Position numbers and translations under genes: made by a program. From NCBI GenBank assembly GCA_041686235.1, contig JAWLED010000059.1, forward strand, positions 1 through 18,098: DNA of 18,098 nucleotides. The letters are read 5' to 3'. The stretch is from Spirochaetia bacterium (GTDB lineage: Bacteria; Spirochaetota; Spirochaetia; DSM-27196; PWMO01). Position 1 is the first letter of the stretch. The number at the start of each line of letters is the position of its first letter. Under the pieces are notes generated by a model, which had not been told where the DNA came from, did not search any database, and saw nothing but the letters and a program-made list of their open reading frames with translations. Below, one piece after another: positions 1 through 18,098 of the stretch.

Positions 1-1
1 G

Positions 2-373: not shown

Positions 374-404
374 GAGCGAACCTTCGCAGGAGGTTAGATA
401 TCCG

Positions 405-1295: not shown

Positions 1296-1398
1296 AGCAG
1301 GATAGGTCGTTTAGAAAAGGGAACTTCGCGCGCCGCCTGCCGTGCGGTATGCTCGGACGGCGGTAGCGATTGAAGAAAAATCGTAGGGAGGTGTAGTT

Positions 1399-2424: not shown

Positions 2425-2444
2425 CGTGCAATTGTTATAACTCC

Positions 2445-2474
2445 GCGGCGCTCGGTTTTCTCTCCGGGCGCCGC
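2445..2474 (+). promoter_or_regulatory. GC-rich intercistronic stem-loop between tctC and tctB (11-bp stem with one G.U, 8-nt loop), no U-tract
   Basis: 5' arm gcggcgctcgg (2445-2455) pairs with 3' arm ccgggcgccgc (2464-2474); the loop is ttttctct. It is followed by an AGAGG RBS for tctB rather than a U-run. The placement is typical of an mRNA stabiliser or partial attenuator that gives the binding protein higher expression than the permeases. Confidence 0.4.
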
Positions 2475-2493
2475 TCTGCGTAAGAGGTAAGGC

Positions 2494-3027
2494 ATGACCG
2501 AGACAAAGGAGAAACGACGGCCTGAAATGCCGAAGGCCGACTTCGTTACTTCACTGGTGTTGCTTGCATTCAGTGTTGCAGTCGTTCTGTTATCCACGAG
2601 ACTACCGCGACTCGAGCATCGAGACATAAACCAATGGACGATACCGGGGCTGGTTCCGGGGCTCATCGGGACCATAATCGGGATAATGGCCATCGTGCTC
2701 CTGTTGCGCTCTCTCAGATACGGAGGGCATCACCTCGGATTGACACGACGGCGCCTACGCTCGTTTACCGAGATGACGCAGGTACGGCGGGCGGGGGCAA
2801 CCCTGGTAATCTCTCTCTTTTATGCGCTGGTGCTCATCGGTCTCGTGCCCTATGCGGTGGGGACGTTTTTGTTCGTGTTTCTCTTCATTCTTCTTTTCAC
2901 CTATGAAAGAAGTGTCCCGATACGTGAACAGCGCAAAAAGGTACTGGTGGCTGCAGTGGAAGCGGTGATCGTTTCGGCGGCCGTTGCTTCACTATTTCAG
3001 TACGTATTTCTGGTACGCTTGCCATAA
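2494..3027 (+). CDS. tctB: Tripartite tricarboxylate transporter small membrane subunit TctB
   Basis: 177 aa, four hydrophobic helices, AGAGG RBS. It sits between tctC and tctA, the canonical position of tctB. Confidence 0.7.
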   Translation: MTETKEKRRPEMPKADFVTSLVLLAFSVAVVLLSTRLPRLEHRDINQWTIPGLVPGLIGTIIGIMAIVLLLRSLRYGGHHLGLTRRRLRSFTEMTQVRRAGATLVISLFYALVLIGLVPYAVGTFLFVFLFILLFTYERSVPIREQRKKVLVAAVEAVIVSAAVASLFQYVFLVRLP

Positions 3028-3041
3028 AGGAAGTATAGAGT

Positions 3042-4604: not shown

Positions 4605-4615
4605 GGAGCATGGAA

Positions 4616-5797
4616 ATGGCACAAAGGAAAATTCGTGCGGGTATCGTCGGATCGGGCTTCTCCGCCCGTTTTCACGTAGAAGCGCTCGAGCGCGTTTACA
4701 GTACCAACGTCGAGCTCGTAGGCGTATACTCTCCAACATCCGAACATAAGCAACAATTTGCCGACGCCCACGGCATAACCGCTTTCTCAACGCTCGAAGA
4801 GCTTGTCCAGGCGGTCAACGTGGTGCACGTGTGCACCCCTCCCGCGACCCATGAGCCGGTCGCGGTTGCCGCTCTCGAGGCCGGGCGATGCGTCATTATC
4901 GAAAAACCCTTTACCGGATACTTCGGCGACGGGAGCAAAGGTTTCTCCGGTGACACGTTTCCCCGCGAACACGGACTTTCCGGCGCACTTTCCTCAATCG
5001 AACGCCTGAGACAGGCAGAAGAGCGCTCAGACGGCATGATCTTGTATGCAGAAAACTGGGTCTATGCGCCGGCCGTACAGAAGGAACGGGAAATCATCGA
5101 AAAGACCGGCGCACAGCTGCTGTGGATGCACGGAGAGGAAGCCCATTCGGGCTCCCACTCGAAGTACTACGGCATTTGGGCCCACTCCGGTGGCGGGGCG
5201 ATCATGGGGAAGGGTGTGCATCCGCTCGGTGCGGCGCTCTATTTGAAGAAAGTGGAAGGACGGATGCGCGGAGGCGGTCCGATCCGGCCCAAGAGCGTCA
5301 GCGCCCATACGCACGCGGTCACGCGCGCGTCCAATTACGAGGATGCAGGATTTCTCCGCACCGGCTATACCGATATCGAGGATTTCGGCCACGTACATGT
5401 CGTCTTCGAGGACGGCACGTTTGCCGACATATTTGCCTCAGAGTTAGTACATGGGGGCGTGCACAATTGGATCGAGGTTAATGCCAACAATCATCGCACC
5501 ATCTGTAATATCAATCCCAATACCGCAATGCAGACCTATAACCCGAGCGAATCACAATTCGACGATATCTACGTAGTGGAGAAAACCGGCACAAAACAGG
5601 GGTGGGCGTTTACCTCGCCGGATGAGGACTGGTTTACCGGCTATCAGCATGAGATGGAGGCATTCTATCGCAATGTTGCAGAGGGCTCACAACCCGAGTC
5701 CGACGGGCGCCTTGCCGGAGACATTATCGCAGTGGTATATGCCGCCTACCTTTCTGCAGAGAAGCAAGGTCAAGCAGTAGACGTACCGCAGGTGTGA
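4616..5797 (+). CDS. Gfo/Idh/MocA family NAD(P)-dependent oxidoreductase
   Basis: The N-terminal Rossmann motif IRAGIVGSGFSARFH and the EKP motif (IIEKPF) are typical of Gfo/Idh/MocA. AAGGAG at 4603-4608 is 7 nt from the ATG at 4616; the ATG at 4610 is too close to the SD. Length is ~393 aa. Confidence 0.8.
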   Translation: MAQRKIRAGIVGSGFSARFHVEALERVYSTNVELVGVYSPTSEHKQQFADAHGITAFSTLEELVQAVNVVHVCTPPATHEPVAVAALEAGRCVIIEKPFTGYFGDGSKGFSGDTFPREHGLSGALSSIERLRQAEERSDGMILYAENWVYAPAVQKEREIIEKTGAQLLWMHGEEAHSGSHSKYYGIWAHSGGGAIMGKGVHPLGAALYLKKVEGRMRGGGPIRPKSVSAHTHAVTRASNYEDAGFLRTGYTDIEDFGHVHVVFEDGTFADIFASELVHGGVHNWIEVNANNHRTICNINPNTAMQTYNPSESQFDDIYVVEKTGTKQGWAFTSPDEDWFTGYQHEMEAFYRNVAEGSQPESDGRLAGDIIAVVYAAYLSAEKQGQAVDVPQV

Positions 5798-6702
5798 CAA
5801 GCTCGAATCTGTCTGCGCTGAAACGCTATTCAACCCCGGCCGTTGCGCCGGTGCTCTGGGGCGGCGCGCTCGTAGCCGGACGCGTCGTCTCAGCCGACCT
5901 TCCACCTATCACGATCACATGGGTACGGTTCGTGCTCGTGGGCCTACTCTTAGTACCAGTATTGTGGATACGCGAAGGACGGTTCCCGCGACCTCGGCGA
6001 ACGGATCTTGTGGCGCTCGTGCTTCTCAGCCTCACGGGCGTGGTCGTATTCAATCTGCTTTTGTTCTCTGGACTACAAACGGTAACTGCGGTGAGAAGTT
6101 CCGTTATCATTGCGCTCGGCCCGTCGGTCGTGGCGTTGTTATTGGTGGTGTTTTTTCACGAACGGGCGGAACGGAATACGGTTTTCGGCATTGCGGTGGC
6201 CTTTGCCGGAGCGGTGGTTACGATTACCAATGGCCGGCCGACTCACATATTGGCCGGTGGTATTTCGGTGGGAGATGCCTATCTCCTCGGGTGTGTGTTC
6301 TCATGGGCGATATACACGATCATCGCCCGCTACGCGATTCGCAACCTCTCATCTCTGTCGGTACTTACCTATTCCTCGATACTCGGTGCCGCAATGCTGA
6401 CTCCGGTTGCCGTGCGCGCTGATATCGCGGCGGAAGTTGCCGGGGCTACGCCACAGGCGTGGGTGGCGCTTGCGTATCTCGTGTTTGGAGCGGCAGGGTT
6501 TGCCTATCTCATGTATTATGAGGGTATCCGCCTGGTAGGCCCAAATCGGGCAGCAGTCTTCTTGAATTTAGAGCCGGTTTCTGCTATCTTTTTAGGCGTC
6601 GTGTTGCTGGGAGAGGCCCTGACGCCGCCGGTACTCATTGGTGCGGCATTGGTTATTTTGGGACTCTACCTGGTCAACCGACGGAAAGCGGCGAGTTCGT
6701 AA
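5794..6702 (+). CDS. EamA/DMT-superfamily permease (10-TM drug/metabolite transporter)
   Basis: A GTG start overlaps the oxidoreductase stop (GTGA, 4-nt overlap). The protein is 302 aa with two EamA-like 5-TM halves. The exact start is uncertain. Confidence 0.65.
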   Translation: MTSSNLSALKRYSTPAVAPVLWGGALVAGRVVSADLPPITITWVRFVLVGLLLVPVLWIREGRFPRPRRTDLVALVLLSLTGVVVFNLLLFSGLQTVTAVRSSVIIALGPSVVALLLVVFFHERAERNTVFGIAVAFAGAVVTITNGRPTHILAGGISVGDAYLLGCVFSWAIYTIIARYAIRNLSSLSVLTYSSILGAAMLTPVAVRADIAAEVAGATPQAWVALAYLVFGAAGFAYLMYYEGIRLVGPNRAAVFLNLEPVSAIFLGVVLLGEALTPPVLIGAALVILGLYLVNRRKAASS

Positions 6703-6734
6703 AGCAGCTGGACGACTGTCTATGTCCAGCTCTT

Positions 6735-6792
6735 AAAAAAGGGCGGGCGCGGCCCCACCGTAGCAGATAGAGCGGCGCGCCCGTCTCTCGTT
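6735..6792. terminator. Candidate bidirectional intrinsic terminator between the convergent EamA gene (+) and the sORF (-)
   Basis: An all-G/C 8-bp stem, cgggcgcg (6744-6751) with cgcgcccg (6776-6783). On the minus-strand RNA it is followed by ccc + UUUUUU (plus-strand A-run 6735-6740). On the plus strand it is followed by a U-rich tctctcgtt. The loop is long (24 nt), so confidence is modest. Confidence 0.35.
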
Positions 6793-6845
6793 ACCTGTTG
6801 GCGACCGTCACTCGAGGCGTGTTGAGCACGGTCACCGGCCCGCTG

Positions 6846-6974
6846 TTACATTTCCTGTTCTTGCTCGAGTTCCTGACCCTCTTCAGGGAGCTCACTCTCG
6901 TCGATGGGCTCACAACCCATAAGAGCAACACCAAACAACAGCGGAACAATAAGAAACAACGCTAGCTTTTTCAT
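6846..6974 (-). CDS. Unannotated small lipoprotein (42 aa): signal peptide + lipobox + 22-aa highly acidic mature peptide
   Basis: My reverse-complement translation gives MKKLALFLIVPLLFGVALMGCEPIDESELPEEGQELEQEQEM, ending at a TAA stop. A strong SD (GGGAGGAGG, plus 6981-6989) sits 6 nt before the ATG. The n-region (MKK), hydrophobic h-region and L-M-G-C lipobox fit PROSITE-type lipoprotein rules. It is below the 61-aa cutoff of the ORF track. Confidence 0.55.
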   Translation of the reverse strand: MKKLALFLIVPLLFGVALMGCEPIDESELPEEGQELEQEQEM

Positions 6975-7196
6975 AACGGTCCTCCTCCCGTTTAGTTGAT
7001 ATCTTTAATCTAACCGACGCGTGCAAAGGGCGTGTCCACGTATCATGAAGTGTTTGTGAAGCTCGCTGTGCTCGTGGACGACGGTTTCCGGCCCTCCCCA
7101 CACGCCCCGGGCCGGTGTCTCCCGGCGTGACGGCACCTTCTTTTAACAGCTCGTTGATATTGCTTAACGTTTCGCCGACAGAATCTTAACAATCCC

Positions 7197-7226
7197 TTGA
7201 CAAACCCGGTCTTGTGGCCTCATTTT
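7197..7226 (+). promoter_or_regulatory. Putative sigma70-type promoter for the aminopeptidase gene (perfect -35 TTGACA, weak -10 cATttT after 18 nt)
   Basis: TTGACA is at 7197-7202 and CATTTT at 7221-7226. The ATG at 7248 lies ~15-20 nt downstream of the predicted TSS. The TTG that the ORF track used as a start is this -35 box. Confidence 0.25.
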
Positions 7227-7247
7227 AGAAACCGGCAGGGTGTTGGA

Positions 7248-8333
7248 ATGAGACCCTATAGGTCGAGCGTTACAGTAATTCTCGCTGCATTGATCCTCGC
7301 GGGTGCGTTTTATGCACTCGACGGGGGGTATTTGGTTCGGCAAGGCATCGGCTACTTCCACACGGTCATACTTGCCCGCGACTTCGACACACTTCGTGCT
7401 CAAGAAGATCTTGATAAACCTACCGAGCACCTCTTAGAACGCGTTGAAGAAATCCGCAGGTTTGCGCACGAAGAGCTCGGACTGAGAAAAACCGAAAACT
7501 TCACACGATACAGCGAGGTTAATCGAGACTATTTGGTTACCGTGGTTTCGGTTGTGCGGGACGACCGAATGCAACGCGGGACGTGGAATTATCCCGTCGT
7601 TGGTGAGCTTTTCTATCGAGGTTACTACAATAGCTCTCAGGCACAGCGGGTAGCGGCGCGCCTCGAAGCACAGAATTACGACGTGCTCATCCGCGAGGTC
7701 GACGCCTTCAGCAGCCTCGGGTACTTCCCTGATCCGGTCTACAGTTTCATGTCCGACTATAGCGACTACCGTTTGGCAAACCTCATCATCCATGAGGAAA
7801 TGCACTCCACCCTCTGGCTCGAGGGGCAAAATGCGTTCAATGAAGAGATCGCGACGTTCGTCGGCGACGAGGGTGCTGCAGAGTTCGTACGGCAGAAGCA
7901 TGGGGTAGAATCTCCGGAGTATCAATCGATTGCCAAGGGGAGCGCGGATCGAAAAACATACCGGCGACTCATGACCGAGTTGCATGAGAAGTTATCCGCG
8001 GCCTACCAACGGCTCGAAACGCGAGCGGAGCGCCTCGAAGCCAAAGAACGAATCTTCGAAGAGTTCCAAGATAGGATCGCCGCCAATTACGACACCCTGT
8101 TTCGCACCGACCGCTATCGCGGTATCACCAACCTTCCGCCCGACAATGCCCGCGTAGACGCAAGCTATAAGTATGGCGGTGACCTCTCGTTGTACTACGA
8201 GCTCTATGAGGAAGTTGATCGCGACCTCAGTGAAGTCATCGATATGCTGCGTAACAGCGGAGCACGCCCCGACGCCCCGCGCGATGCCCTCAGATCGCTC
8301 CTCGAAGAGGATTCCTCGGTCGGCGACACGTAA
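7248..8333 (+). CDS. Putative zinc-dependent aminopeptidase (DUF2265/'predicted aminopeptidase'-like), N-terminal signal/anchor, HEXXH motif
   Basis: The internal ATG at 7248 begins MRPYRSSVTVILAALILAGAFYAL, a hydrophobic signal peptide or anchor. A HEXXH zinc motif, IIHEEMHSTLW, is present. The overall length is ~360 aa. The family assignment is from memory, not a search. Confidence 0.55.
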   Translation: MRPYRSSVTVILAALILAGAFYALDGGYLVRQGIGYFHTVILARDFDTLRAQEDLDKPTEHLLERVEEIRRFAHEELGLRKTENFTRYSEVNRDYLVTVVSVVRDDRMQRGTWNYPVVGELFYRGYYNSSQAQRVAARLEAQNYDVLIREVDAFSSLGYFPDPVYSFMSDYSDYRLANLIIHEEMHSTLWLEGQNAFNEEIATFVGDEGAAEFVRQKHGVESPEYQSIAKGSADRKTYRRLMTELHEKLSAAYQRLETRAERLEAKERIFEEFQDRIAANYDTLFRTDRYRGITNLPPDNARVDASYKYGGDLSLYYELYEEVDRDLSEVIDMLRNSGARPDAPRDALRSLLEEDSSVGDT

Positions 8334-8377
8334 CACTCGCTGCGATACGCGACGTCACTATCCGAGCAGCTACCGTC

Positions 8378-10246
8378 TTACGCGAGCGATTCGAGCTCTT
8401 CCCACCACTGGTAGGCGTCGGAAATCTCGCGCTCGAGCTCGTCAAGCCGCTCGGTAAGCTCCCGCACCGTCGAGCCGTCGGCCTCCGTGTCGCGGTAGAG
8501 GGCAGGGTCGGAGAGTTTGCGATGAATCTGCTCCTGTTCGGCCTCCAACTCTGCGATTCGGTCCGGCAGTAGCTCGAGCTCGCGACGCTCTTTGAATCCG
8601 AGTTTGCGCGGTTGCTCGGCGCGTCGCTGTCGGTTTGTTTTGCCGCTTGTTTTGCTGCCGGCCTTCTCGCTCGTGGACTCTCGGCGGCCGGCGTGCTGTC
8701 GGCGCTCACGCTCACGTTCGCGCCAATCGGTGTATCCGCCGGAGTATTCGACGACCTGAGCATCTCCGCTCAGTACGAGGCACTCCGTAACCACGTTATC
8801 GAGAAACTCACGGTCGTGGCTCACGAGAATGATCGTCCCATCGTAGTCGATCAGAAGCTGCTCGAGCAGCTCGAGTGTTTCGGTGTCGAGGTCGTTGGTC
8901 GGCTCATCGAGGACCAAAACGTTCGACGGGCGCGCAAAGAGCTTTGCCAGCAGTAACCGGTTGGTCTCTCCGCCGGAAATGCCCTTCGCAGGCTTTTTCA
9001 TATCTTCTTCACTGAAGAGAAACTCTTTGAGATATCCGGCAAGATGACGCTCGCGGCCGGCGTAGCGTACCCGATCGTAGCCGCCGCCGACGTTCTCGTA
9101 GATCGATGCCTCGGGATCGATACGTGCCCGCATTTGGTCGAAGTAGACGACCTCGAGCCCGGTGCCGTGCCGGACCGTCCCTGCATCCGGCGACAATTCT
9201 TTGAGCAGTAGGCGAACGAGGGTGGTCTTGCCGCTGCCGTTTGGGCCCACGATACCCACGCGGTCGCCGCGCTCGATCATGGTCGAAAGCCCCGATATGA
9301 TCGACGTTTCCCCGTAGCCGAAGCTGAGCTCTTCGGTCTCGATCACCATATCACCCGAGCGCTCTGCGTTCTCGATCGACATCCGTGCGGTTTCCGGACG
9401 CTCCCGCCGCTGTCGATGCTCCTCGCGCATCTGCTCTAAGCGCCGCACGCGGCCCTCATTGCGGGTCTGACGGGCCTTTATGCCTTTGCGAATCCAGGCT
9501 TCCTCTGCGGCAAGTTTCTCATCGAATTTGCGTCGCTCCTCCTCTTCCTGTTCGAGTTGCTGTTGGCGCCGGCGGACGAACTCGTCGTAGCCGGCATCAA
9601 AACTGTAGAGCTTACCGCGGTCGAGCTCGGCGACTCGAGTGGTTAGCCGTCGTGCCAGGGCGCGGTCGTGGGTAACCAACAACAAGGCGCGCTTCTCGAC
9701 GTTCGACAATCGGAGGAGATAGTCTTCGAGCCATAGGACGGTGTCGATGTCGAGGTGGTTCGTCGGCTCGTCGAGAAGGACCGCATCCGCTCCGGCGGCA
9801 AGGGTGCGGGCGAGCAGTACCCGACGCAGCACTCCGCCGGATGCCGTTGAGAGCTCCGTGTCCGCCCCGACCCCGAGGCGGGTGAGAAACTGCTCGGCTT
9901 CGAGACGTCTGTGAGCGAGCGTCTCGTGGTCTTCGTCCGGACCGGCGTCGAGCGCGGCGTCGATCGCCGATCCGCTCCATCCGTGGGGAATCTGCTGATC
10001 GAGGTACGCAAGCCGTGCCCCCGCCTGAACGCTCACCCGGCCCTCGTCGGGAGTCAGTTTCCCGGCCGCAATTCGCAGGAGGGTGGATTTGCCCGCGCCG
10101 TTTCTGCCCACCAGACTGATCCGCTCACCAGGCTGCACGTGCAGCGAGACGTGGTCGAGAACAGGGTCCCCGCCGAAGTTGTAGTACACATCGTGAAAGC
10201 CAAGAAGCGCCACGGCCGCACGGTAGCACAACCGGCGCCGCCGCAT
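8378..10246 (-). CDS. uup: ABC-F family twin-ATPase (Uup-like) with C-terminal basic/coiled-coil domain
   Basis: There are two complete ABC cassettes (Walker A GRNGAGKST and GPNGSGKTT; signature LSGG-like motifs; Walker B LLDEPTNHLD and LVLDEPTNDLD). A charged inter-domain linker is rich in E/R/K. The C-terminal Arg/Lys-rich segment plus coiled coil is typical of Uup. There are no TM segments. The exact start is uncertain (ATG 10246 or GTG 10213). Confidence 0.85.
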   Translation of the reverse strand: MRRRRLCYRAAVALLGFHDVYYNFGGDPVLDHVSLHVQPGERISLVGRNGAGKSTLLRIAAGKLTPDEGRVSVQAGARLAYLDQQIPHGWSGSAIDAALDAGPDEDHETLAHRRLEAEQFLTRLGVGADTELSTASGGVLRRVLLARTLAAGADAVLLDEPTNHLDIDTVLWLEDYLLRLSNVEKRALLLVTHDRALARRLTTRVAELDRGKLYSFDAGYDEFVRRRQQQLEQEEEERRKFDEKLAAEEAWIRKGIKARQTRNEGRVRRLEQMREEHRQRRERPETARMSIENAERSGDMVIETEELSFGYGETSIISGLSTMIERGDRVGIVGPNGSGKTTLVRLLLKELSPDAGTVRHGTGLEVVYFDQMRARIDPEASIYENVGGGYDRVRYAGRERHLAGYLKEFLFSEEDMKKPAKGISGGETNRLLLAKLFARPSNVLVLDEPTNDLDTETLELLEQLLIDYDGTIILVSHDREFLDNVVTECLVLSGDAQVVEYSGGYTDWRERERERRQHAGRRESTSEKAGSKTSGKTNRQRRAEQPRKLGFKERRELELLPDRIAELEAEQEQIHRKLSDPALYRDTEADGSTVRELTERLDELEREISDAYQWWEELESLA

Positions 10247-10285
10247 CTACGCACCATCGTATACGCACCGCCATTAATATGCCTC

Positions 10286-10313
10286 GTGACGAGATCCGGC
10301 AGAGTACGGTATA
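10286..10313 (+). promoter_or_regulatory. Putative promoter for the small OMP gene: -35 GTGACG, 16-nt spacer, perfect -10 TATAAT (10308-10313)
   Basis: The TATAAT hexamer lies 37 nt upstream of the ATG at 10350. The alternative ATG at 10314 sits inside this element and is therefore unlikely to be the start. Confidence 0.35.
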
Positions 10314-10349
10314 ATGTGTAGAGACGACACGGAGGCGTTACGGAGCCTA

Positions 10350-11072
10350 ATGAAGCTCACAAAGATATCAATAATCGCCCCGGTTCTCGGGGTTTTTCTT
10401 CTGCTCTCGGCTGTCCAGACACCGGCACAGACCTCGTACGTCGGGGTCAAAGGCGGGATTTTCGCCGGCTTCTACGGAGGCGAGGACTGGAAAGATACGA
10501 TTTCCGAGATCGACGGCCAAACCGGTGTTAGTGCCGAGAACGCCTTTAGAGCGGGGTTTGCACTGTCAGGCCTCGTGGAAATCGGGGTGAGCCGTACGTT
10601 CTCGATCCAACCGGAAATCGGATACGCGCGGCGAAGCGGCGGAGTGGTGACGGAAGAAGACGACAGCGACAATGAGCAGCAAAGCCTCTTCATGTACGAT
10701 CTCATTGAGATTCCCCTATTCTTGAAACCCCACGGGAGAATAGGAGATCACCTGACTCTCTACGGTTTGTTAGGTCCTAGGGTGAGTTTTCTTTTTGGGG
10801 ACGTGACCGCCAGAGGTAGGGAAGAAACCGACAACGACACGACGACCACGACTTCTGAAAGAACACCGGATAATACGGTCTTATTTGGTGGCTCCGTGGG
10901 CGCGGGGCTCGCCGGCGATGTCAACGGCGCGCGCATTCTGTTCGAAGCGCTATACTCACGGCACTTCAACTCCGCTTTTGAAGAAGTGGACCTCTTAGGT
11001 CAAAACGAGACAACGAAACGACCGATCCTCAACAGCATCGGCCTGTGGCTCGGAGTAGACTTCCCCATCTAG
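10350..11072 (+). CDS. Small outer-membrane beta-barrel protein (OmpA-N/OmpW-like 8-strand barrel family), secreted
   Basis: The signal peptide is MKLTKISIIAPVLGVFLLLSAVQTPAQT. Alternating hydrophobic/aromatic beta-strand patterns are present (YVGVKGG, FALSGLVEIGV, FSIQPEIGYA, LFGGSVGAGLA, ILFEALYSR), with a low-complexity D/T-rich surface loop. GGAGG/ACGGAG boxes lie upstream. Confidence 0.6.
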   Translation: MKLTKISIIAPVLGVFLLLSAVQTPAQTSYVGVKGGIFAGFYGGEDWKDTISEIDGQTGVSAENAFRAGFALSGLVEIGVSRTFSIQPEIGYARRSGGVVTEEDDSDNEQQSLFMYDLIEIPLFLKPHGRIGDHLTLYGLLGPRVSFLFGDVTARGREETDNDTTTTTSERTPDNTVLFGGSVGAGLAGDVNGARILFEALYSRHFNSAFEEVDLLGQNETTKRPILNSIGLWLGVDFPI

Positions 11073-12256
11073 AACGAGTAGGTAAATCCGGTGCTCAGCG
11101 TGGCCGCTCCCGAGCGCTCCCACGCGAAAACGTTCGTGTTGTCTCCGCTCTGCACGCCGGCAAACGCCACCAATTCAAATCCGCCGAATACATTCCAACT
11201 CACCCCGGTGCTCATGTAAGCCGAGAGATCGATCGGTGACACAATCGAGCGCAGCACAACGGATACCGTACGCCCGGGGCTCAGAACGAGCTCCGGGTAT
11301 AGGGTGAGCCCGTACTCGCCCTGGGGGTCATTCTTGTCCTCCCACGCGCCCCCCGGGCGGATGAGCGCCTCGAGTCGAGCGTCGAGGTCTACCTCGCGGC
11401 CGAGAGTGAAGCGGTTGTAGGCTCCGAGGCTGAAGGTCGCTCGTTCGTCCACCGCATCTCCGTCGGCATCGCCCCCGATATCGCCGTCTATCGAGAGCCG
11501 CCCCGCGCCGTAGACGTCCACGCCTATGAGCCCGACGACGGTGAGGACCGTTTCGTGGCGCCCGCTTGTGCCGTCATACAGGTAGGCCGGCTCGAGCGTG
11601 AAATTCCCGAGCTCGAAGCTCAGACGCCCACCCGCTCGGCTACTGCTGAGCTCAGAGGGCTCATCCCCGGAGCCGGTCGACGGGCTTCCCTCGGTCGGGA
11701 GGTCGGGGAGGATAATGGGCTCGAAGTATGAGAACGAGCCGAGCGGAACATACACCGCGCTCAACCACGTGGTTTCATTACGCAGGTCGTCCGATATCTC
11801 GAAAAAGTCGGCCGCGCCGGTTCCGTCCGCGCCAAAAATGACGTCGGCGGCGTTGAACAGACGCCCCATACCCCACGAAACGCGGTCGCGCCCGGAGGTC
11901 ACACGCACCGTGTAGTCCTCGGTCAGCGGAAACCGGAAGCGTATAGAGGCACGGGGGACGGTTACCGTGGCCGCTTGCTCGGTATCCCCGGTGTTCGAGC
12001 CGGTGGTCTCGCCAAGAACGGCATCGAGTGTGAGGCGAGCCTGAACGTTGCGGTCACGCTCGGAGCGGAGGTCGAGTTCCCCGCGGCCATAGCCGAGCAA
12101 TCCGAGCTCGTCCTTGGCGCCGTTCCATGCGAGGGTGTTTAGCGTCTCGATTTCCCCGTCGATCCGCGCCTGGGCGGCAAGCGGGAGCGGGGCGATGGTA
12201 CACAAAACCGCCACTATCGCGCACCACAGAGCCGGTCCGCCGCGTGCGCCTACCAT
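11069..12256 (-). CDS. Outer-membrane beta-barrel protein (395 aa), last gene of the minus-strand operon
   Basis: GGAGG is 7 nt before the ATG. The signal peptide ends at AAQA. The sequence is dominated by alternating hydrophobic strands with G/D-rich turns and ends with the OMP C-terminal signature ...STGFTYSF (terminal Phe). The start overlaps the upstream LolA_like gene by 7 nt. Confidence 0.6.
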   Translation of the reverse strand: MVGARGGPALWCAIVAVLCTIAPLPLAAQARIDGEIETLNTLAWNGAKDELGLLGYGRGELDLRSERDRNVQARLTLDAVLGETTGSNTGDTEQAATVTVPRASIRFRFPLTEDYTVRVTSGRDRVSWGMGRLFNAADVIFGADGTGAADFFEISDDLRNETTWLSAVYVPLGSFSYFEPIILPDLPTEGSPSTGSGDEPSELSSSRAGGRLSFELGNFTLEPAYLYDGTSGRHETVLTVVGLIGVDVYGAGRLSIDGDIGGDADGDAVDERATFSLGAYNRFTLGREVDLDARLEALIRPGGAWEDKNDPQGEYGLTLYPELVLSPGRTVSVVLRSIVSPIDLSAYMSTGVSWNVFGGFELVAFAGVQSGDNTNVFAWERSGAATLSTGFTYSF

Positions 12257-13116
12257 GAGAGCTCCTCCAGCGAAAAAATATTCGAGGGAAGATCAACCCC
12301 GATTTCCACACTTTCGAGGATCATGTCCGTGCTGCTCGACCTGCGGGTCGTGTCGTCGATGCGCAGGTGTATCGGGAAGTGGTAGCCGTTCCGACGTGTG
12401 GTCTCGAGGACGCTGATCTCTTTCAACTGCCGTCCGCTGCGCGCGTACTGCTCGCTTTTGAGGAGCACGAAGTCCTCGGCATCGACATAATAGACTTGCC
12501 GTGGATACGCTACATTGGTGCCGCGCGCCTCGAGCTCGATCTTATACGCGTTGCGCCCCTGGATTTGTTCTTCACCTTGGAGATTCACCCGATAATCATC
12601 GAGTAGCCCCCGCCCCCCGGTCATATCTTCGTAGGAGAGATCCGATCCCAGAAGCGAGTCACGCAACGCCGAGCCCTGCAACCGGATTACTTCCCGCGCA
12701 TCGGGGTAATAGAGATACAGATTATCGTCGCGGCGAAGGATCCGCTGGCCGTCTTCGTCGCGCGAGGTAAACTCTACGAGAAATCGATCTTCGCCTTCGC
12801 TGTGCATGATAAACGTGCTTGTGCGCTCACCGAAGCGGTCGTTTATCACCATGCGCCCCTCGACAATGCTCGTGGGGTGTGTTTGGTTCTCCTCCATCCG
12901 CTCGATAATATCTTCGCCCGTCATCTCCTCGGCGGGCAGACTGAGCGGTGCGAGGAGCACGAAAGCGGCAAGGGCGGGGAGGGCGGCCACCATTCGCCGC
13001 CGAGTGCCGGCCGTGCGGCGGGCGGCTCGGCGCTCGCCGGCACGGTGGTCGCCCGTGCGGCGGGCGGCGGCCCGCATTACGCAGATTCGTGTTCTCATAC
13101 GTGAAACTTTTCTCAT
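12250..13116 (-). CDS. LolA_like 'outer-membrane lipoprotein-sorting protein' family protein (distant LolA/LppX fold), exported
   Basis: AAGGAG is 7 nt before the ATG at 13116, immediately after the permease stop. The hydrophobic export segment is MVAALPALAAFVLLAPLSLPA. The mature part carries the SDLSYEDM motif (GSDF/LSYEDM is the family hallmark) and the typical ~230-aa core. It starts with an unusual Arg-rich 41-aa N-terminal extension, so the alternative start is M42 at 12993. Confidence 0.6.
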   Translation of the reverse strand: MRKVSRMRTRICVMRAAARRTGDHRAGERRAARRTAGTRRRMVAALPALAAFVLLAPLSLPAEEMTGEDIIERMEENQTHPTSIVEGRMVINDRFGERTSTFIMHSEGEDRFLVEFTSRDEDGQRILRRDDNLYLYYPDAREVIRLQGSALRDSLLGSDLSYEDMTGGRGLLDDYRVNLQGEEQIQGRNAYKIELEARGTNVAYPRQVYYVDAEDFVLLKSEQYARSGRQLKEISVLETTRRNGYHFPIHLRIDDTTRRSSSTDMILESVEIGVDLPSNIFSLEELSW

Positions 13117-13134
13117 ATTCAGTCTCCTTCCCGG

Positions 13135-14361
13135 TTAGTCGCGGAGCGCCTCCACCGGCTTCAACTTCGCCGCCCGTCGGGCGGGGAAAAATGAGGCAAA
13201 CATCGCAATCGCCGACGAGTAGACGAACACCACCACTGTCGAGCGCAGATTCAACACCGGATACAGTACCGTCGACATCTCCATGTTTGCCTGTTCCATT
13301 GCCTGGCCGAAATCGATGCCGAGGCGTTGCAACGGCAGCGTAGCACCGATGCCGAGCACCACTCCCAACAGAGAGCCGGCAAGGCCGAGATAGGCGGCCT
13401 CGATGAAGAACAGGCGAACGAGCTCGCGGTCGTGCATTCCCATTGCCGTGAGGGTACCGATCTCACGGGTGCGCTCGTGAATCGTCATCATCGTGGTGTT
13501 GATCACCACGGTGCTTCCGAGCAAAAAGAAGATGAGCGCGATGATGTTGTAGACGGCGTCCGCCATTTGAAGATACGCGTAGCCGCCGCTGACCTCTGTC
13601 CACGGGGTAACGCTCATCCCCTCGATACCGCTTTCGGAAAGCGCTGATCGAACCGCGGCCTCGACCGCGCTCAGCTCGCCGGTGTCACTTTTCACGAGCA
13701 CCTCGGTTGCCGCATCGCCCATACGCGCGTAACGCGACGCGGTGTCAATCGGAAGTATAAAGGTGTTGTCGTTCAACCCGGCCATGGGAAACACGGCAAG
13801 GCCCACCACGTCGACGCTGAAACCGTTCGACCTTCGGTTTCGCGTGCGGGTAAGGAAGGTGGCCATATCTCCGATTCCGACATCCAGCTCCTCGGCAAGC
13901 CCGGTTCCGAGGATTGCCTCCCTCGTTCCCGGCTGGGGAAGTCTCCCCTCGGCAACAATTGTATCGAGCTCTTGATACCTCTGCTCGAGCTGGAGATCGA
14001 GTCCTATTCCGTTGGCTGCGATATGCTGCTCGCCGCGAAAGGCCGCACCGGCAATCTTGATCCGGGGGCTCACCGCCGAGACGGCCGAGCGCTCTGAGAG
14101 GCGATCGACGAGGCGCTCGTAGTCGGGAACCACGTAATGAACCGGGTTGAGGTGCTCGTATCGATCAAAATCGGCATTGCGAATACGGATCTCTCCGGTC
14201 TCGTAGTTCCAGGCGTTATGGCGAACGTCAACCTTGATACCTTCGAAAATCGAGAAGAGCATGGTGATGGCGAACGCGGCGATTGCGATGGCGATTATCG
14301 AAAGGAGGCTTCGCCTTCCGTTTCGGAACACGTTACGGAGTGCTATGGACGCGATCTTCAT
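13135..14361 (-). CDS. FtsX-family ABC permease with large periplasmic domain (MacB/LolC/LolE type), copy 2
   Basis: The start is taken at M61 of the ORF-track translation (ATG 14361; GGGAG SD; 10 nt after the upstream stop). Topology is TM1, then a ~230-aa periplasmic domain, then 3 C-terminal TMs, i.e. the MacB/Lol architecture. The longer ORF-track start would overlap the upstream gene. Confidence 0.8.
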   Translation of the reverse strand: MKIASIALRNVFRNGRRSLLSIIAIAIAAFAITMLFSIFEGIKVDVRHNAWNYETGEIRIRNADFDRYEHLNPVHYVVPDYERLVDRLSERSAVSAVSPRIKIAGAAFRGEQHIAANGIGLDLQLEQRYQELDTIVAEGRLPQPGTREAILGTGLAEELDVGIGDMATFLTRTRNRRSNGFSVDVVGLAVFPMAGLNDNTFILPIDTASRYARMGDAATEVLVKSDTGELSAVEAAVRSALSESGIEGMSVTPWTEVSGGYAYLQMADAVYNIIALIFFLLGSTVVINTTMMTIHERTREIGTLTAMGMHDRELVRLFFIEAAYLGLAGSLLGVVLGIGATLPLQRLGIDFGQAMEQANMEMSTVLYPVLNLRSTVVVFVYSSAIAMFASFFPARRAAKLKPVEALRD

Positions 14362-14371
14362 TTGCTCTCCC

Positions 14372-15628
14372 TCATGCGTGGCGCAGCGAATCGGTGATGC
14401 TGCGACGAAGAATACGCCGGGTCGGCACAATCGCGACGACGCCGGCGAGGACAACGGCAAATGCCGCGCTCGCAACCATTGTCGGAACGTTCCACACGCC
14501 GTAGAGGACCCCATCGAAGCGGAAGTCCATCTCGGCTCCATCCATCAAAACGCCGTAATCGAGGCCGTAGCTTACCGACAGCCACACCAGCACCGACCCG
14601 AGGGCCACCCCACCGATCGCCCCGATGAGGCCGATTCCGGCCGCCTCGTAGGCGAACATCGAGCGGATCTCCCCGTTTCGAAAGCCCATTGCTCGCATCA
14701 TGCCGATCTCGTTCTCGCGCTCGAGCACCGACATCAGCATGGTATTGGAGATACCCACCACGGCGATGAGCCCGAGGAGCAGAAGGATTATGGCATTCGA
14801 GGCGTTCTCCATCTCCATGATCTCCGCGAACTCTTCGTTGAGACGCTCGAAGCTCAGAAACTCGACGTGATCGAAATCCGAGAGTACCTCCCGCACCGGC
14901 TCGGTATCGGCCTCGCTTGGAAGTGTTCCGGGAAGCGACATGTGGATGGAGGTCACCGCACCGCGCATTTCGAGATATTCGTCGGCTACCCCGATGGGGA
15001 GAAAGGCCTGGTAGCGGTTGAGAATGGGATTCGACGTGTTGAAAATGCCGACGATTTCGAGATCCATGATTTGGTGAAACCCGTCTCGCGTACGGGTCGT
15101 CACTGAGATGGGATAGCCGATCTCCGCGCCAAGCCGCTCGGCAAGCCAGCGACCGATCACCACCTCTTCTTGCCCGGCGTGCGGAAAGCGGCCCTCGACG
15201 ATTGCCTCGGAAAGCCCAAACACTTCGGGGTCACGCTCCACATCGATTCCGTAGAAGGTGCGTTGTATCGAGCCGTCTTCGGGGAACGGGTCATAGCGTA
15301 CGATGAGCTCCCCGCGAAACGCCACACGCGGCGCCGCGGGGATTCCTTCTCGCTCCAGTGCTTCGAGGATCTCTTGCGGGGTTTCAATGACGCGGTCGAG
15401 TGGCAGCGTCTCGCGCTCGTCCCAGTAGCCCGGCGCCGTTGCTGCCGCGTCGCCGGTCTCGTAGCGAGAGACATTTCGGTTATTCTCGGCGGCAAACCCT
15501 TCGAGGAGCGAGCTCATCGCCACGAATATCGCCACGCCGAACGCGATTGCGCTCGCGGTGATGAGCGTCCGGCGCTTGTGTCGCGCGAGGTTTTTCGCGG
15601 CGAGGGCGATGAGAAATCCGCGCGGCAT
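14372..15628 (-). CDS. FtsX-family ABC permease with large periplasmic domain (MacB/LolC/LolE type), copy 1
   Basis: The start is taken at M41 (ATG 15628; GAGGGGAG SD; 35 nt after the ATPase stop). It has the same architecture as the downstream paralogue, so the two probably form a heterodimer as LolC/LolE do. Confidence 0.8.
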   Translation of the reverse strand: MPRGFLIALAAKNLARHKRRTLITASAIAFGVAIFVAMSSLLEGFAAENNRNVSRYETGDAAATAPGYWDERETLPLDRVIETPQEILEALEREGIPAAPRVAFRGELIVRYDPFPEDGSIQRTFYGIDVERDPEVFGLSEAIVEGRFPHAGQEEVVIGRWLAERLGAEIGYPISVTTRTRDGFHQIMDLEIVGIFNTSNPILNRYQAFLPIGVADEYLEMRGAVTSIHMSLPGTLPSEADTEPVREVLSDFDHVEFLSFERLNEEFAEIMEMENASNAIILLLLGLIAVVGISNTMLMSVLERENEIGMMRAMGFRNGEIRSMFAYEAAGIGLIGAIGGVALGSVLVWLSVSYGLDYGVLMDGAEMDFRFDGVLYGVWNVPTMVASAAFAVVLAGVVAIVPTRRILRRSITDSLRHA

Positions 15629-15662
15629 TCGCTCCCCTCGTGTACGTCGGCCACCCAGCATC

Positions 15663-16346
15663 TCATGCGCTCCTTCGCTCATCACTCTCGATGAGCCCGT
15701 CGTGCAGCCGGCAAAGGCGGGCGGCGTAGTCCATGACCATGTGGTCATGGGTCGAGAACACGAAGGTGGTACCGCGGCGGCGGTTCACGTCCTTCATGAG
15801 CTCGAGGATGGCCTCGCCGGTCTCCGAATCCAGGTTCGCCGTGGGCTCGTCGGCAAGCACGATCAATGGGTCCTTTATGAGTGCGCGGGCCACCGCGACG
15901 CGCTGCTGTTGCCCCCCGGACAGTCGCGAGGGGCGGCGGTGCTCCATTCCCTCGAGGCCGACCTCGGCGAGCAACCCCATCGTCCGCTCTTGCGTTTCCT
16001 CCTGCGACACGCCGAGCAGCGAAAGAGACATGGATACGTTTTCGTAGGCGGTCAGCACCGGGATGAGGTTGAAGTTCTGAAATACGAATCCGATCTTTTG
16101 CCGGCGCATCTCGGTGAGCTCGCGCTTGCTTCGACCGGCCACGCGCTCCCCGTCGATGTCGATGTCGCCGGCGTCGGCGGTGTCGATGCAGCCGATTATG
16201 TTCAAGAGCGTTGTCTTGCCGGAGCCCGACGGCCCGGCGATCGAGAGAAACTCACCGCTGTCGATGTCCATGGAAACACCCCGCAGGGCGTGCACCCGGG
16301 TCTCCCCGTCGATGTAGTCCTTGTGGACCTCATGCACCGTAATCAT
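15663..16346 (-). CDS. ABC transporter ATP-binding protein, LolD/MacB-NBD type
   Basis: Walker A GPSGSGKTT, Q-loop, signature LSGGQQQRVAVARAL, Walker B LIVLADEPTANLD and H-loop STHD are all present. AAGGAAG is 7 nt before the ATG. The start overlaps the stop of the SPFH gene (ATGA). Confidence 0.9.
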   Translation of the reverse strand: MITVHEVHKDYIDGETRVHALRGVSMDIDSGEFLSIAGPSGSGKTTLLNIIGCIDTADAGDIDIDGERVAGRSKRELTEMRRQKIGFVFQNFNLIPVLTAYENVSMSLSLLGVSQEETQERTMGLLAEVGLEGMEHRRPSRLSGGQQQRVAVARALIKDPLIVLADEPTANLDSETGEAILELMKDVNRRRGTTFVFSTHDHMVMDYAARLCRLHDGLIESDERRSA

Positions 16347-17461
16347 GTGGTATCTTCCTTTTCCTCGTTTTCGTGTTCCTGCTCGCCGCGCCGCAAGGCC
16401 GCCATGCCGAGACTGGTACCGAGATTCATCGAATCCAGCGCGGAGCTCGGAACGAGCATCATGTTCTCGTTCTGCTTCATCCCGTCATAGATCATATTCA
16501 TGGCCCGCAGCTGGAAGGCCGTCGGGTTCTCTTCGTAGCGCCGCCCGGCCTCCTCGAATTTTTCCGCGATTTCTACTTCCGCGGAGCTGAGAATAACGCG
16601 CGACTGTCGCTCGCGCTGGGCTTGGGCTTTGCGGCTCAACGCGTCCTCGAGCTCTTGGGGGAGAAGCACCTCCTTGAACTCAATCGAGATGATGGTAATG
16701 CCCCATGGGCTGGTTTTGCGGTCGAGCGTCTCCTGTATTTCCCCGCCGAGACGCTCCCTCTCGCTCAGCACCTCCGACAAGTCGCTGTGCCCGATGGTGT
16801 CGCGCAACGCCGACTGCGCCGAAAGCGTCACCGCCTCCGCATACTTCTCGACCTCGAGAATCGCCTTCTCGGCGTCCCAGACCATCCAAAAGGCGAGGGC
16901 GTCTACATGCACGGGCACCGTGTCCCGTGTTACCGAGCGCTCGGCGGAGAAGTCGGTCACGCGTATGCGCATGTCGACCCGGTCGATCACCGTATCGAGG
17001 ATGGGTAAAACCACGTGTGGTCCCGGGGAGAGGGTCCGGTGAAATCGCCCCAAACGCAGCACCAGCACGCGCTCCCAATGCCGCACGACCTGAACGGTCG
17101 GGGCGAGCAGGAGCCCGGCGCTGACCACGCCGAGTGCCGCCGCCGTCGTGCCTGCCGTTGTGCCGGGGAGGATCGGCCCCACACCGGCCCACATAGCCAC
17201 GATGACCGCGAGCACGACCGGCCACAGCGGCAATACGGCAATAACAGCCGCCCCTCCGATCACAACGAGCGCGAGGGTCACGACGGCTTGTTGGCTGGGC
17301 ACGGTGCCGACGGCAAGTTGGAGGGCCATGCCGGCCCCGAGGAATACAACGACCGTCAATGCGGAGAGCGTACTAAAGGTAAAGTGCGACGGTCGCCGAA
17401 GCGTGCGACGCGCAGACGAGCGCCGGCTCAGCTCGTTTCGAATCTGTTCGGTGGTCTTCAT
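16343..17461 (-). CDS. SPFH/band-7 (stomatin/prohibitin-like) membrane protein with an extended polytopic N-terminal region and acidic C-tail
   Basis: GGAGG is 7 nt before the ATG. The SPFH core (VRHWERVLVLRLGRF...PGPHVVLPILD...VDMRIRV...) is preceded by ~125 aa containing about four hydrophobic helices; canonical stomatins have one hairpin. The start overlaps the gntR stop (ATGA). Confidence 0.8.
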   Translation of the reverse strand: MKTTEQIRNELSRRSSARRTLRRPSHFTFSTLSALTVVVFLGAGMALQLAVGTVPSQQAVVTLALVVIGGAAVIAVLPLWPVVLAVIVAMWAGVGPILPGTTAGTTAAALGVVSAGLLLAPTVQVVRHWERVLVLRLGRFHRTLSPGPHVVLPILDTVIDRVDMRIRVTDFSAERSVTRDTVPVHVDALAFWMVWDAEKAILEVEKYAEAVTLSAQSALRDTIGHSDLSEVLSERERLGGEIQETLDRKTSPWGITIISIEFKEVLLPQELEDALSRKAQAQRERQSRVILSSAEVEIAEKFEEAGRRYEENPTAFQLRAMNMIYDGMKQNENMMLVPSSALDSMNLGTSLGMAALRRGEQEHENEEKEDTT

Positions 17462-17859
17462 TCGTCCCCCTCCTCGTGGTACGCGCTCAAAAACGCGACG
17501 ATCTCGCCGACACTGAAGCCGTACGAAGCGGCCTGACTGACAAACCCCCGTACCAGCTGTGAAAGAATCTGGTTGCGATCCACCTCCGAGAGCGCAACTT
17601 CCTTGTCGCTGATGAAGGTGCCGGTCCCGTGTTGCGTGCTTACCAACCCGCGAATCTCGAGCTCGTTGTAGGCGCGGGCAACGGTATTCGGGTTTACCTG
17701 CAGGTCGACCGCAAGGCCGCGAACCGTGGGCAGCTGAAACCCGGGTTTCAGCCGTCCGTCCGCAACCGCCATCTCGATCTGGAGAATGATCTGGCGATAA
17801 TAGGGGATGCCGCTTCCGGGATCGAGCAGGATGTCGATCGACCTTTTTTCTTTTGCCAC
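17458..17859 (-). CDS. GntR-family transcriptional regulator, YtrA subfamily (winged HTH + short C-terminal dimerisation helices)
   Basis: The 133-aa product starts at GTG, with a GAGGG SD 5 nt upstream. The GntR HTH signature is LPTVRGLAVDLQVNPNTVARAYNELEIRGLV. The C-terminal ~50 aa are typical of the YtrA subfamily, which classically controls adjacent ABC exporters. Confidence 0.8.
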   Translation of the reverse strand: MAKEKRSIDILLDPGSGIPYYRQIILQIEMAVADGRLKPGFQLPTVRGLAVDLQVNPNTVARAYNELEIRGLVSTQHGTGTFISDKEVALSEVDRNQILSQLVRGFVSQAASYGFSVGEIVAFLSAYHEEGDE

Positions 17860-17876
17860 GTTACCCTCGTTGCTGA

Positions 17877-17889
17877 GCAGTAAGTTGTA
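17877..17889. promoter_or_regulatory. Candidate GntR-type operator: inverted repeat AGTA-N5-TACT (GT..AC core) in the leader of the gntR operon
   Basis: agtaagttgtact is palindromic at its flanks (agta/tact). It lies between the predicted TSS and the RBS, where an autoregulatory YtrA-type repressor would be expected to bind. Confidence 0.2.
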
Positions 17890-17910
17890 CTATTGAACTA
17901 ATACACTGAT

Positions 17911-17939
17911 ATTTTGGTACACAAAAGCTCGGAAGTCAA
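17911..17939 (-). promoter_or_regulatory. Putative promoter of the gntR-SPFH-ABC operon (minus strand): -35 TTGACT, 17-nt spacer, -10 CAAAAT
   Basis: On the reverse complement, TTGACT (plus 17934-17939) is followed by a 17-nt spacer and CAAAAT (plus 17911-17916). The region is AT-richer than its flanks. The predicted TSS is ~45 nt upstream of the GTG start. Confidence 0.3.
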
Positions 17940-18061
17940 CAAGAAATTTCGGACTCATCAAACTTGAAAAACGCAATAGTGCCGGCGGGATTGTGATTTC
18001 TCTTGACCTTAGAGCGCGCTCCAAGCCGTACATTCTACAACTGCCGACCGGAGGTACGTGC

Positions 18062-18098
18062 GTGCGTGAACGTGGGCTGTGTCCCCTCCAAAACCCTG
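18062..18098 (+). CDS. Possible 5' end of a divergently transcribed gene running off the window (GTG start after GGAGG)
   Basis: GGAGG at 18050-18054 is followed 7 nt later by GTG. The frame stays open to the window end, which is only 12 codons, so this is very weak. Confidence 0.12.
   Translation, partial: MRERGLCPLQNP

Follow-up and report, generated by a model that had tools for sequence, protein, structure and literature searches.

Pairing of genes for a YtrA-type regulator and a polytopic slipin in a Spirochaetia operon and across bacterial phyla

In this study, we report on an 18,098-nucleotide (nt) stretch of DNA from a Spirochaetia bacterium (assembly GCA_041686235.1, contig JAWLED010000059.1, positions 1 to 18,098 of the forward strand; the whole stretch is hereafter called the window), which carries a gene for a slipin, that is, a stomatin-like SPFH protein, directly behind a gene for a GntR regulator of the YtrA subfamily. 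With a probability of about 0.55, the two genes make up a conserved and apparently undescribed cassette, in which a YtrA-type repressor is translationally coupled to a polytopic slipin with a role in membrane homeostasis. In the window, the pair heads a compact seven-gene operon on the minus strand (17939 to 11069), whose genes encode, in order, the GntR regulator, the SPFH protein, an ABC ATPase, two FtsX permeases, a LolA-like protein and a protein of 395 amino acids (aa).

Most bacterial SPFH proteins are of unknown function, and the main genomic partner recognised for them so far is NfeD; YtrA regulators are without a known signal input, and the cassette connects these two poorly understood families. 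The SPFH fold, the YtrA class and operons of ytrA with an uncharacterised membrane protein are already known, and the widely conserved YtrA-slipin pairing and the membrane architecture of the slipin are apparently new. A search of the literature library used here returned no paper linking GntR or YtrA with SPFH, stomatin or slipin, and none linking SPFH with MacB, FtsX or LolCDE. The cassette has a recognisable operator and is present in the cultured species Spirochaeta africana and S. lutea.

Conservation of the gene pair

The locus set comprised the best 80 of at least 593 confirmed genome matches to the slipin. The open reading frames (ORFs) of the loci were searched with seven window proteins, and the taxon labels given here are those of the deposited metagenome-assembled genomes (MAGs). 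A GntR gene was located directly upstream of the slipin gene, on the same strand, at 79 of the 80 loci, namely at all 34 Spirochaetota loci and at 45 of the 46 others, which are labelled Gemmatimonadota, Acidobacteriota, Planctomycetota, Latescibacterota, Krumholzibacteriia, Myxococcota, Desulfobacterales and Bacteroidota; the pair spans at least seven phyla. The stop codon of the GntR gene and the start codon of the slipin gene overlap by 4 nt in about half of the loci. A previous reading of the window, made from its letters without database searches (the sequence-only reading), had treated the regulator as a mere flank of the slipin gene, a view that its near-invariant presence does not bear out.

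An ABC/FtsX block was found 3' of the slipin gene at 27 of the 34 spirochaete loci (79%), with 7 of the 34 lacking it, and at none of the 43 non-spirochaete loci whose sequence extended 1 kb or more beyond the slipin gene. The cultured S. africana and S. lutea, reached by a search that started from the LolA-like protein, showed the same seven-gene order as the window. The co-occurrence of this SPFH type with FtsX permeases, raised in the sequence-only reading, is thus recurrent within Spirochaetota but does not extend to the other phyla of the set. Among these 80 closest loci, the near-invariant partner of the slipin is the YtrA regulator, and the ABC exporter is a spirochaete addition.

All-against-all clustering of the neighbours at the 80 loci revealed no third conserved gene outside Spirochaetota. 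The sole exception is a gene for a DUF3592 membrane protein of 276-290 aa (PF12158, E ~1e-8), which lies between the GntR and slipin genes as a lineage-specific third cassette member at two Planctomycetota loci (L052, 5584-6414; L064, 3826-4698); a gap of about this size is seen at locus L059. At one Pirellulales locus (L034, 4412-6473), genes for an FtsX permease and an ABC ATPase come directly after the slipin gene but are encoded on the other strand and converge with it. It is the only non-spirochaete locus with an adjacent transporter of that type, and the arrangement is possibly coincidental.

The elements of the pair in the window are:

17911..17939, minus strand: sigma-70-like promoter candidate, TTGACT (17939..17934), 17-nt spacer, CAAAAT (17916..17911), matching 9 of 12 consensus positions
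17887..17904, no strand assigned: palindromic operator candidate GTATTAGTTCAATAGTAC, of the form GTAYTA-N6-TARTAC
17458..17859, minus strand: YtrA-subfamily GntR repressor, 133 aa, GTG start, at the head of the operon (Pfam GntR)
16343..17461, minus strand: polytopic slipin (stomatin-like SPFH protein), 372 aa, ATG start (Pfam Band_7)
17372..17461, minus strand: Arg/Lys-rich N-tail, slipin residues 1-30, predicted cytoplasmic, with a [HD]F-x-F motif at its end before the first transmembrane helix (TM1)
17096..17371, minus strand: four-helix membrane module, slipin residues 31-122, with W80 in an LPxWP turn (hydropathy, AlphaFold2, conservation)
16580..17089, minus strand: SPFH/Band_7 core, slipin residues 125-294 (PF01145)
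16346..16657, minus strand: C-terminal part of the slipin with helices 269-310 and 313-330, the VPSSAL..M.LG segment and an acidic tail (AlphaFold2, conservation)

Read from the sequence, the GntR stop and SPFH start codons share an ATGA at 17461..17458, and the SPFH stop and ABC start codons share another at 16346..16343, so that coupling on both sides of the slipin gene, as noted earlier, is confirmed.

The slipin and its membrane module

The earlier assignment of the minus-strand ORF at 16343-17461 to the SPFH/stomatin-like proteins was upheld by Pfam, where Band_7 (PF01145) matched the core (E=1.8e-34) at 119.8 bits, above the cut-off of 23.6. When the family profile was compared with the Protein Data Bank (PDB), the best match was the Pyrococcus stomatin PH1511 (2.6e-48), followed by human stomatin (~1e-46), QmcA (1e-34) and HflK/C (1e-10 to 1e-13), and the alignment with full-length human stomatin continued through the coiled coil and the C-terminal segment to profile position 337. 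Foldseek ranked the structures in the same order, with 9oh9 and 9z7u as top matches. The HflK and HflC NCBIfam equivalog models were not reached (TIGR01933, 75.5 against 159.4 bits; TIGR01932, 45.1 against 134.4 bits), nor was the flotillin FloT model NF058507 (17.3 bits against a cut-off of 700), and a protein at least 90% identical, from a Spirochaetia MAG, is labelled 'slipin family protein' by NCBI. The architecture is that of the stomatin branch, consisting of a membrane anchor (here expanded to four helices), the SPFH core, a long coiled-coil helix, which AlphaFold2 places at residues 269-310 ahead of a shorter helix at 313-330, and a C-terminal segment, in which P338, within the conserved VPSSAL..M.LG, was invariant in 90 homologues. 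Each of the 80 loci carries one SPFH gene and no K/C pair. On these scores and alignments, the slipin is an SPFH protein of the stomatin branch and not a member of the HflK/C or flotillin families.

The N-terminal region was analysed by Kyte-Doolittle hydropathy, which gave four hydrophobic segments (~29-51, 59-79, 80-98 and 107-126), and by an AlphaFold2 run with a 90-sequence alignment, which gave four helices (31-50, 57-76, 80-97 and 100-122) with a mean predicted local distance difference test score (pLDDT) of 84-97 in ten-residue blocks from residue 21 to residue 130. The four-helix N-terminus proposed by the sequence-only reading, as opposed to a single membrane helix before the SPFH domain, is borne out by both methods. 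The slipin has more than 1000 homologues; the 120 matches listed were 352-469 aa long, most of them covering ~90% or more of the query. In the 90 aligned homologues W80 was invariant, and F27, S33, P78, W91, G116 and P121 were conserved in at least 90%. A mis-called start had been considered as a possible source of the extension; the Shine-Dalgarno sequence GGAGG stands 7 nt ahead of the ATG at 17461, the overlap with the GntR gene recurs as described above, and the N-terminal region is kept at the protein level in the 90 homologues, which shows that the start is correctly called.

The single membrane helix of Escherichia coli QmcA aligns with the fourth helix (TM4) of the slipin, which indicates that the slipin carries three helices beyond the canonical anchor, in line with the roughly three extra helices counted before. 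With regard to charge, the N-tail of the 90 homologues has on average 6.7 Lys and Arg residues, compared with about 0 for the three inter-helix loops and 5.0 for the 23 residues after TM4. Under the positive-inside rule, this bias points to a cytoplasmic location of both the N-tail and the SPFH domain, and we infer that orientation, unlike that of HflK/C, for the slipin.

Helix number varied among the loci. By hydropathy, four helices were counted at most loci of Spirochaetota, Gemmatimonadota, Latescibacterota and Vicinamibacteria and at some of Phycisphaerae, and two, equivalent to TM3-TM4, at most Terriglobia and Sedimentisphaerales/Pirellulales loci and in a Draconibacterium. As both numbers are even, the predicted orientation would be unchanged. 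The non-spirochaete four-helix forms, including those of Gemmatimonadota, retain the motif before TM1, as ADFRF (ADFRFAPLN) in place of HFRF, together with the tryptophan at the turn between TM2 and TM3. A profile of the N-terminal module matched 38 proteins among 1.84 billion representatives. No stand-alone copy was seen among these 38: all inspected matches long enough to judge go on into an SPFH core, and those that are shorter have the appearance of fragments or of products of frameshifts. Judged from this profile search, the four-helix module is specific to the slipin clade. The idea of a mobile or independent domain was rejected on the finding of SPFH-attached copies only.

In the 2009 survey of prokaryotic SPFH proteins by Hinderhofer et al., NfeD partners were reported only for the groups SPFH1, SPFH2 and SPFH5, and the other groups had no shared partners (PMC2636767). 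An NfeD gene in the operon is typical of SPFH1a/1b (PMC2636767), and in this respect the slipin departs from its closest group, with GntR as the only gene conserved in the 80 loci. The sequence-only reading had correctly noted the missing NfeD gene: no NfeD domain was found in any sizeable ORF of the window, and no conserved neighbour at the 80 loci resembled NfeD. It had further suggested that the extra helices represent a fused NfeD-like segment that replaces the absent partner. The absence of NfeD from the window and loci is what this explanation would predict, and short NfeD proteins bear several membrane helices. Residues 1-130 of the slipin, however, gave no match to PF01957 in Pfam even at E<=10 (only noise, DUF5693 and EI24), comparison of the N-terminal profile with E. 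coli YbbJ by hhalign gave a probability of 0.2%, the region has no OB-fold, and among the 1.84 billion representatives the module was found attached to SPFH cores only. A fused NfeD-like segment is therefore highly improbable, and it was rejected on the Pfam and hhalign results.

Comparison with characterised SPFH proteins places the slipin nearest to stomatin and PH1511 (the SPFH1 group), which gave the best sequence and fold matches and with which it would share an SPFH domain on the cytoplasmic face. These proteins are anchored by one hairpin or helix, the slipin by four (or two) full membrane helices, and it is accompanied by neither an NfeD nor a protease gene, its operon partner being a transcription factor. 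QmcA shares 30% identity with it over 182 residues, in addition to the alignment of its membrane helix with TM4, but is co-encoded with the NfeD protein YbbJ (complex 8z5g), whereas the slipin is without NfeD and its module is unrelated to YbbJ. The orientation of QmcA is reportedly cytoplasmic as well, a result attributed to Chiba et al. 2006. HflK and HflC have in common with the slipin the SPFH fold of a cage-forming family; they differ in being paired genes for single-helix proteins with a periplasmic SPFH domain, whereas the slipin is a single gene for a four-helix protein with a predicted cytoplasmic SPFH domain. In contrast to the HflK/HflC-FtsH system, no FtsH gene lies near the slipin gene, and the similarity is much weaker, as seen in the PDB comparison.

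The regulator, its operator and a proposed mechanism

The product of the first gene matched Pfam GntR over residues 21-83 (E=2.5e-16). Its top NCBIfam matches were the Rv1152 and PmtR families, both under cut-off, and its closest solved relatives were 4r1h, 3by6, 3neu, 4ham and 6sbs, which are YtrA-type proteins of 121-134 aa. Its length of 133 aa and the full-length matches to 4r1h, 3neu and 6sbs agree with YtrA proteins, which measure about 120-135 aa and combine an N-terminal GntR winged helix-turn-helix with a C-terminal domain of about 50 aa, as does the position of its gene, first in the operon and behind a palindrome with outer GT...AC. On this evidence, the regulator is a YtrA-type GntR protein, with a DNA-binding domain and a two-helix tail and without a ligand pocket.

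YtrA regulators act on palindromes with outer GT/AC, and their genes typically share an operon with those of an ABC transporter (PMC4494728); regulators whose gene comes first in an operon of ytrA and an uncharacterised membrane protein, and which autorepress that operon, are also described (PMC6746942). The operator search used GTACTA-N6-TAGTAC with at least 10 of 12 positions matching, up to 200 nt upstream of the GntR gene or just inside it. A palindrome was found at 66 of 77 loci, compared with 2 matches in the remaining 967 kb of locus sequence, and most copies lay 16-80 nt upstream of the GntR gene. A palindrome conserved in this place suggests an autoregulated cassette. In the window, GTATTAGTTCAATAGTAC at 17904..17887 is the sole perfect match; it begins 45 nt before the GntR start and 7 nt after the -10 hexamer of the promoter candidate, and its outer GT and AC fit the published YtrA-type motif (PMC4494728). 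The promoter candidate is supported by its position directly upstream of the operator, and a palindrome right after a promoter-like site stands where a repressor would block initiation. A second operator-like sequence with 2 mismatches, GTACTAAAGGTAAAGTGC, is located at 17370-17387, in the part of the slipin gene that encodes the conserved HFxF motif, and is within chance expectation (at least 2 matches in 11 of 200 shuffles).

The arrangement resembles that of YtrA operons such as the B. subtilis ytrABCDEF type, Sulfolobus YtrA_Sa and the S. coelicolor SCO3812 group, in which a gene for a small GntR protein with a two-helix domain comes first, a palindrome with outer GT/AC stands at the transcription start, and membrane proteins and/or an ABC transporter follow. 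Unlike in the known YtrA operons, the membrane protein here is an SPFH scaffold.

We propose that a YtrA dimer binds GTAYTA-N6-TARTAC at the expected transcription start and would thereby repress its own operon. On relief of repression the slipin would be made and held by its four (in some phyla two) helices, with the N-tail and SPFH domain in the cytoplasm. Homology to stomatin and QmcA makes it probable that its long C-terminal helix mediates assembly of a ring or dome at the cytoplasmic face, which would fence a patch of membrane with a dense palisade of helices. In Spirochaetota, the cassette is linked to the genes of a LolCDE-like type VII ABC system, of a LolA-like periplasmic protein and of a probable outer-membrane protein, and a single transcript would yield scaffold and exporter together; the synteny is observed, and a physical association of the two would be a secondary part of the proposal. 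The most likely role of the slipin is in membrane or envelope homeostasis; on this view the operon is regulated primarily for the slipin, which would not be an accessory dedicated to the exporter. The PspF-PspA system, and the SPFH protein YdjI with PspA of B. subtilis, offer a functional analogy only, that of a membrane-stress effector whose production, and perhaps whose regulator, is tied to membrane state, as neither PspA nor PspF has a sequence relationship to the genes described here. The B. subtilis SPFH protein is described as acting in a membrane-repair pathway (YdjI-PspA; PMC8581546).

Several observations weigh against this interpretation. The GntR pairing is established for the slipin's own clade, that is, its 80 nearest relatives. 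The promoter candidate belongs to a class of site (9 of 12 matches) that is no commoner than shuffling would predict. The crude hydropathy count gave 1, 3 or 5 helices at about a dozen of the 80 loci, and the ATGA coupling to the ABC ATPase gene and the 79% synteny in Spirochaetota leave room for a real exporter link there. In addition, the AlphaFold2 pLDDT falls below 50 for slipin residues 166-205 of the SPFH core (window 16847-16966); a shallow alignment of closely related sequences or the absent oligomer context may be the cause. This low-scoring stretch, RIRVTDFSAE...DTVPVHVDALAFW, is the most strongly conserved part of the core, and the membrane helices score 84-97.

The slipin may also be the signal-sensing partner of the regulator, with the SPFH ring or the [HD]FxF N-tail binding and releasing YtrA according to membrane state, much as PspA controls PspF or as transporters sequester Mlc. 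The near-constant adjacency of the two genes, their stop/start overlap at about half of the loci and their spread over the phyla are consistent with such a relationship, as are the lack of a third conserved gene to supply a signal and the predicted location of the SPFH domain and N-tail motif in the regulator's compartment. Published work found no ligand for the YtrA regulator tested, and the small domain may bind none (PMC6746942, PMC4494728). Against this, the argument proceeds from gene order and topology alone, and repressor-first autoregulated operons are common without protein-protein feedback. Furthermore, PmtR of Staphylococcus aureus, a YtrA-type protein, reportedly binds its peptide effectors directly, so that a small domain does not exclude ligands. 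We regard direct sensing by the slipin as a tentative explanation, with the odds clearly against it.

In a more far-reaching version, the YtrA-slipin pair would be a self-contained switch that senses membrane state and is spread over at least seven phyla. Its stomatin-type ring, held by a palisade of four-helix bundles, would remodel the membrane and would also sequester or release the effector-less repressor, and in spirochaetes the switch would gate the Lol-like exporter. This version is doubtful; if true, YtrA regulators would gain their first defined regulatory input, and a transcription factor would for the first time be the client of an SPFH protein.

Exporter genes and other genes of the window

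The genes downstream of the slipin gene in the operon are:

15663..16346, minus strand: ABC ATPase, 227 aa (Pfam ABC_tran, E=5.6e-34)
14372..15661, minus strand: FtsX/MacB_PCD permease 1, likely ATG at 15661, longest ORF from 15748 (Pfam FtsX and MacB_PCD)
13135..14361, minus strand: FtsX/MacB_PCD permease 2, likely ATG at 14361, longest ORF from 14541 (Pfam FtsX and MacB_PCD)
12250..12993, minus strand: LolA-like protein, periplasmic, likely start at 12993, longest ORF from 13116 (PF17131 'TP_0789-like', E=1.4e-47)
11069..12256, minus strand: 395-aa protein, final gene of the operon, unmatched in Pfam and NCBIfam

The start of permease 1 was taken from the orthologue at locus L001, whose ORF begins 2 nt past the end of the ABC gene; orthologues of permease 2 are 408-412 aa long and homologues of the LolA-like protein 243-260 aa. 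The top NCBIfam matches of the ATPase were of the DevA, LolD and FtsE types, all under cut-off. The LolCDE equivalog cut-offs were likewise not reached (LolD, 215 against 308 bits; lolCE, 92 and 134 bits, the latter being 133.5 for permease 2, against 362). The transporter had been called MacB-type. An ABC ATPase with FtsX/MacB_PCD permeases is indeed present, but the separate ATPase, the two separate permeases, the LolA-like protein and the 395-aa protein make the layout closer to LolCDE-LolA than to the fused MacB. The exporter, as compared here, resembles Lol in layout. The spirochaete operon points to a regulated Lol-like envelope exporter and bears on outer-membrane biogenesis, which is unusual in spirochaetes.

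An additional, third FtsX/MacB_PCD permease gene is present in some spirochaete operons (L007, L008, L010 and L022), in L007 between the slipin and ABC ATPase genes, indicating that the permease complement of the exporter varies. The family of the LolA-like protein, PF17131 (LolA_like), is now named TP_0789-like (also found at L081 and L082). In Treponema pallidum the namesake gene adjoins that of the RND pump TP0790 (PMC8407342), which suggests that members of the family work with ABC pumps in some spirochaetes but with an RND pump in others.

The N-terminus of the 395-aa protein resembles a signal peptide and its last residues are GFTYSF; its gene overlaps the LolA-like gene by 7 nt. It follows the LolA-like gene at 17 spirochaete loci and in S. 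africana and S. lutea, where the proteins have 413 and 526 aa, respectively. The signal peptide and the terminal Phe, which is typical of outer-membrane beta-barrels, indicate that the protein is probably such a barrel; it would be the outer-membrane partner of the ABC/LolA-like system.

The sequence-only reading had also put forward the slipin as a dedicated scaffold that cages or regulates this exporter. So understood, the slipin would support the assembly, stability or activity of the co-encoded ABC system, as HflK/C do for FtsH or stomatin for channels. The ATGA coupling to the ATPase gene, the recurrence of the ABC/FtsX block at spirochaete loci and in the two cultured species, and a solved structure in which stomatin is bound to a membrane channel (9zd2) speak for it. 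Among the 80 closest loci, however, the exporter genes are missing from all 43 non-spirochaete loci with enough downstream sequence and from 7 of the 34 spirochaete loci, so the slipin functions without them, and a predicted cytoplasmic SPFH domain cannot enclose the large periplasmic MacB_PCD domains in the manner of HflK/C. The juxtaposition is explained by the general occurrence of YtrA regulators in ABC transporter operons (PMC4494728), and the LolA-like family pairs with an RND pump as well, as noted above for T. pallidum (PMC8407342). A dedicated exporter scaffold is thus unlikely, and an HflK/C-like cage is not supported by these findings.

A role in anti-phage defence was considered and rejected: PADLOC returned no matches for the GntR, SPFH, LolA-like and 395-aa proteins, and generic ATPase matches only for the ABC protein.

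The remaining genes of the window, which are unrelated to the operon, encode TctABC, a GFO/IDH oxidoreductase, an EamA protein, an aminopeptidase, an ABC-F protein and an outer-membrane beta-barrel protein. The TctC-TctB-TctA cluster for a tripartite tricarboxylate transporter is complete (1399-4604, plus strand), and the ABC-F protein (8378-10246, minus strand) has two ABC_tran domains with ABC_tran_Xtn and ABC_tran_CTD; both are ordinary and unconnected to the slipin finding. The gene for the beta-barrel protein (OMP_b-brl_2; 10314..11072, plus strand) is convergent with that of the 395-aa protein, and their 3' ends overlap by 4 nt (11069-11072), which leaves no space for a terminator between them.

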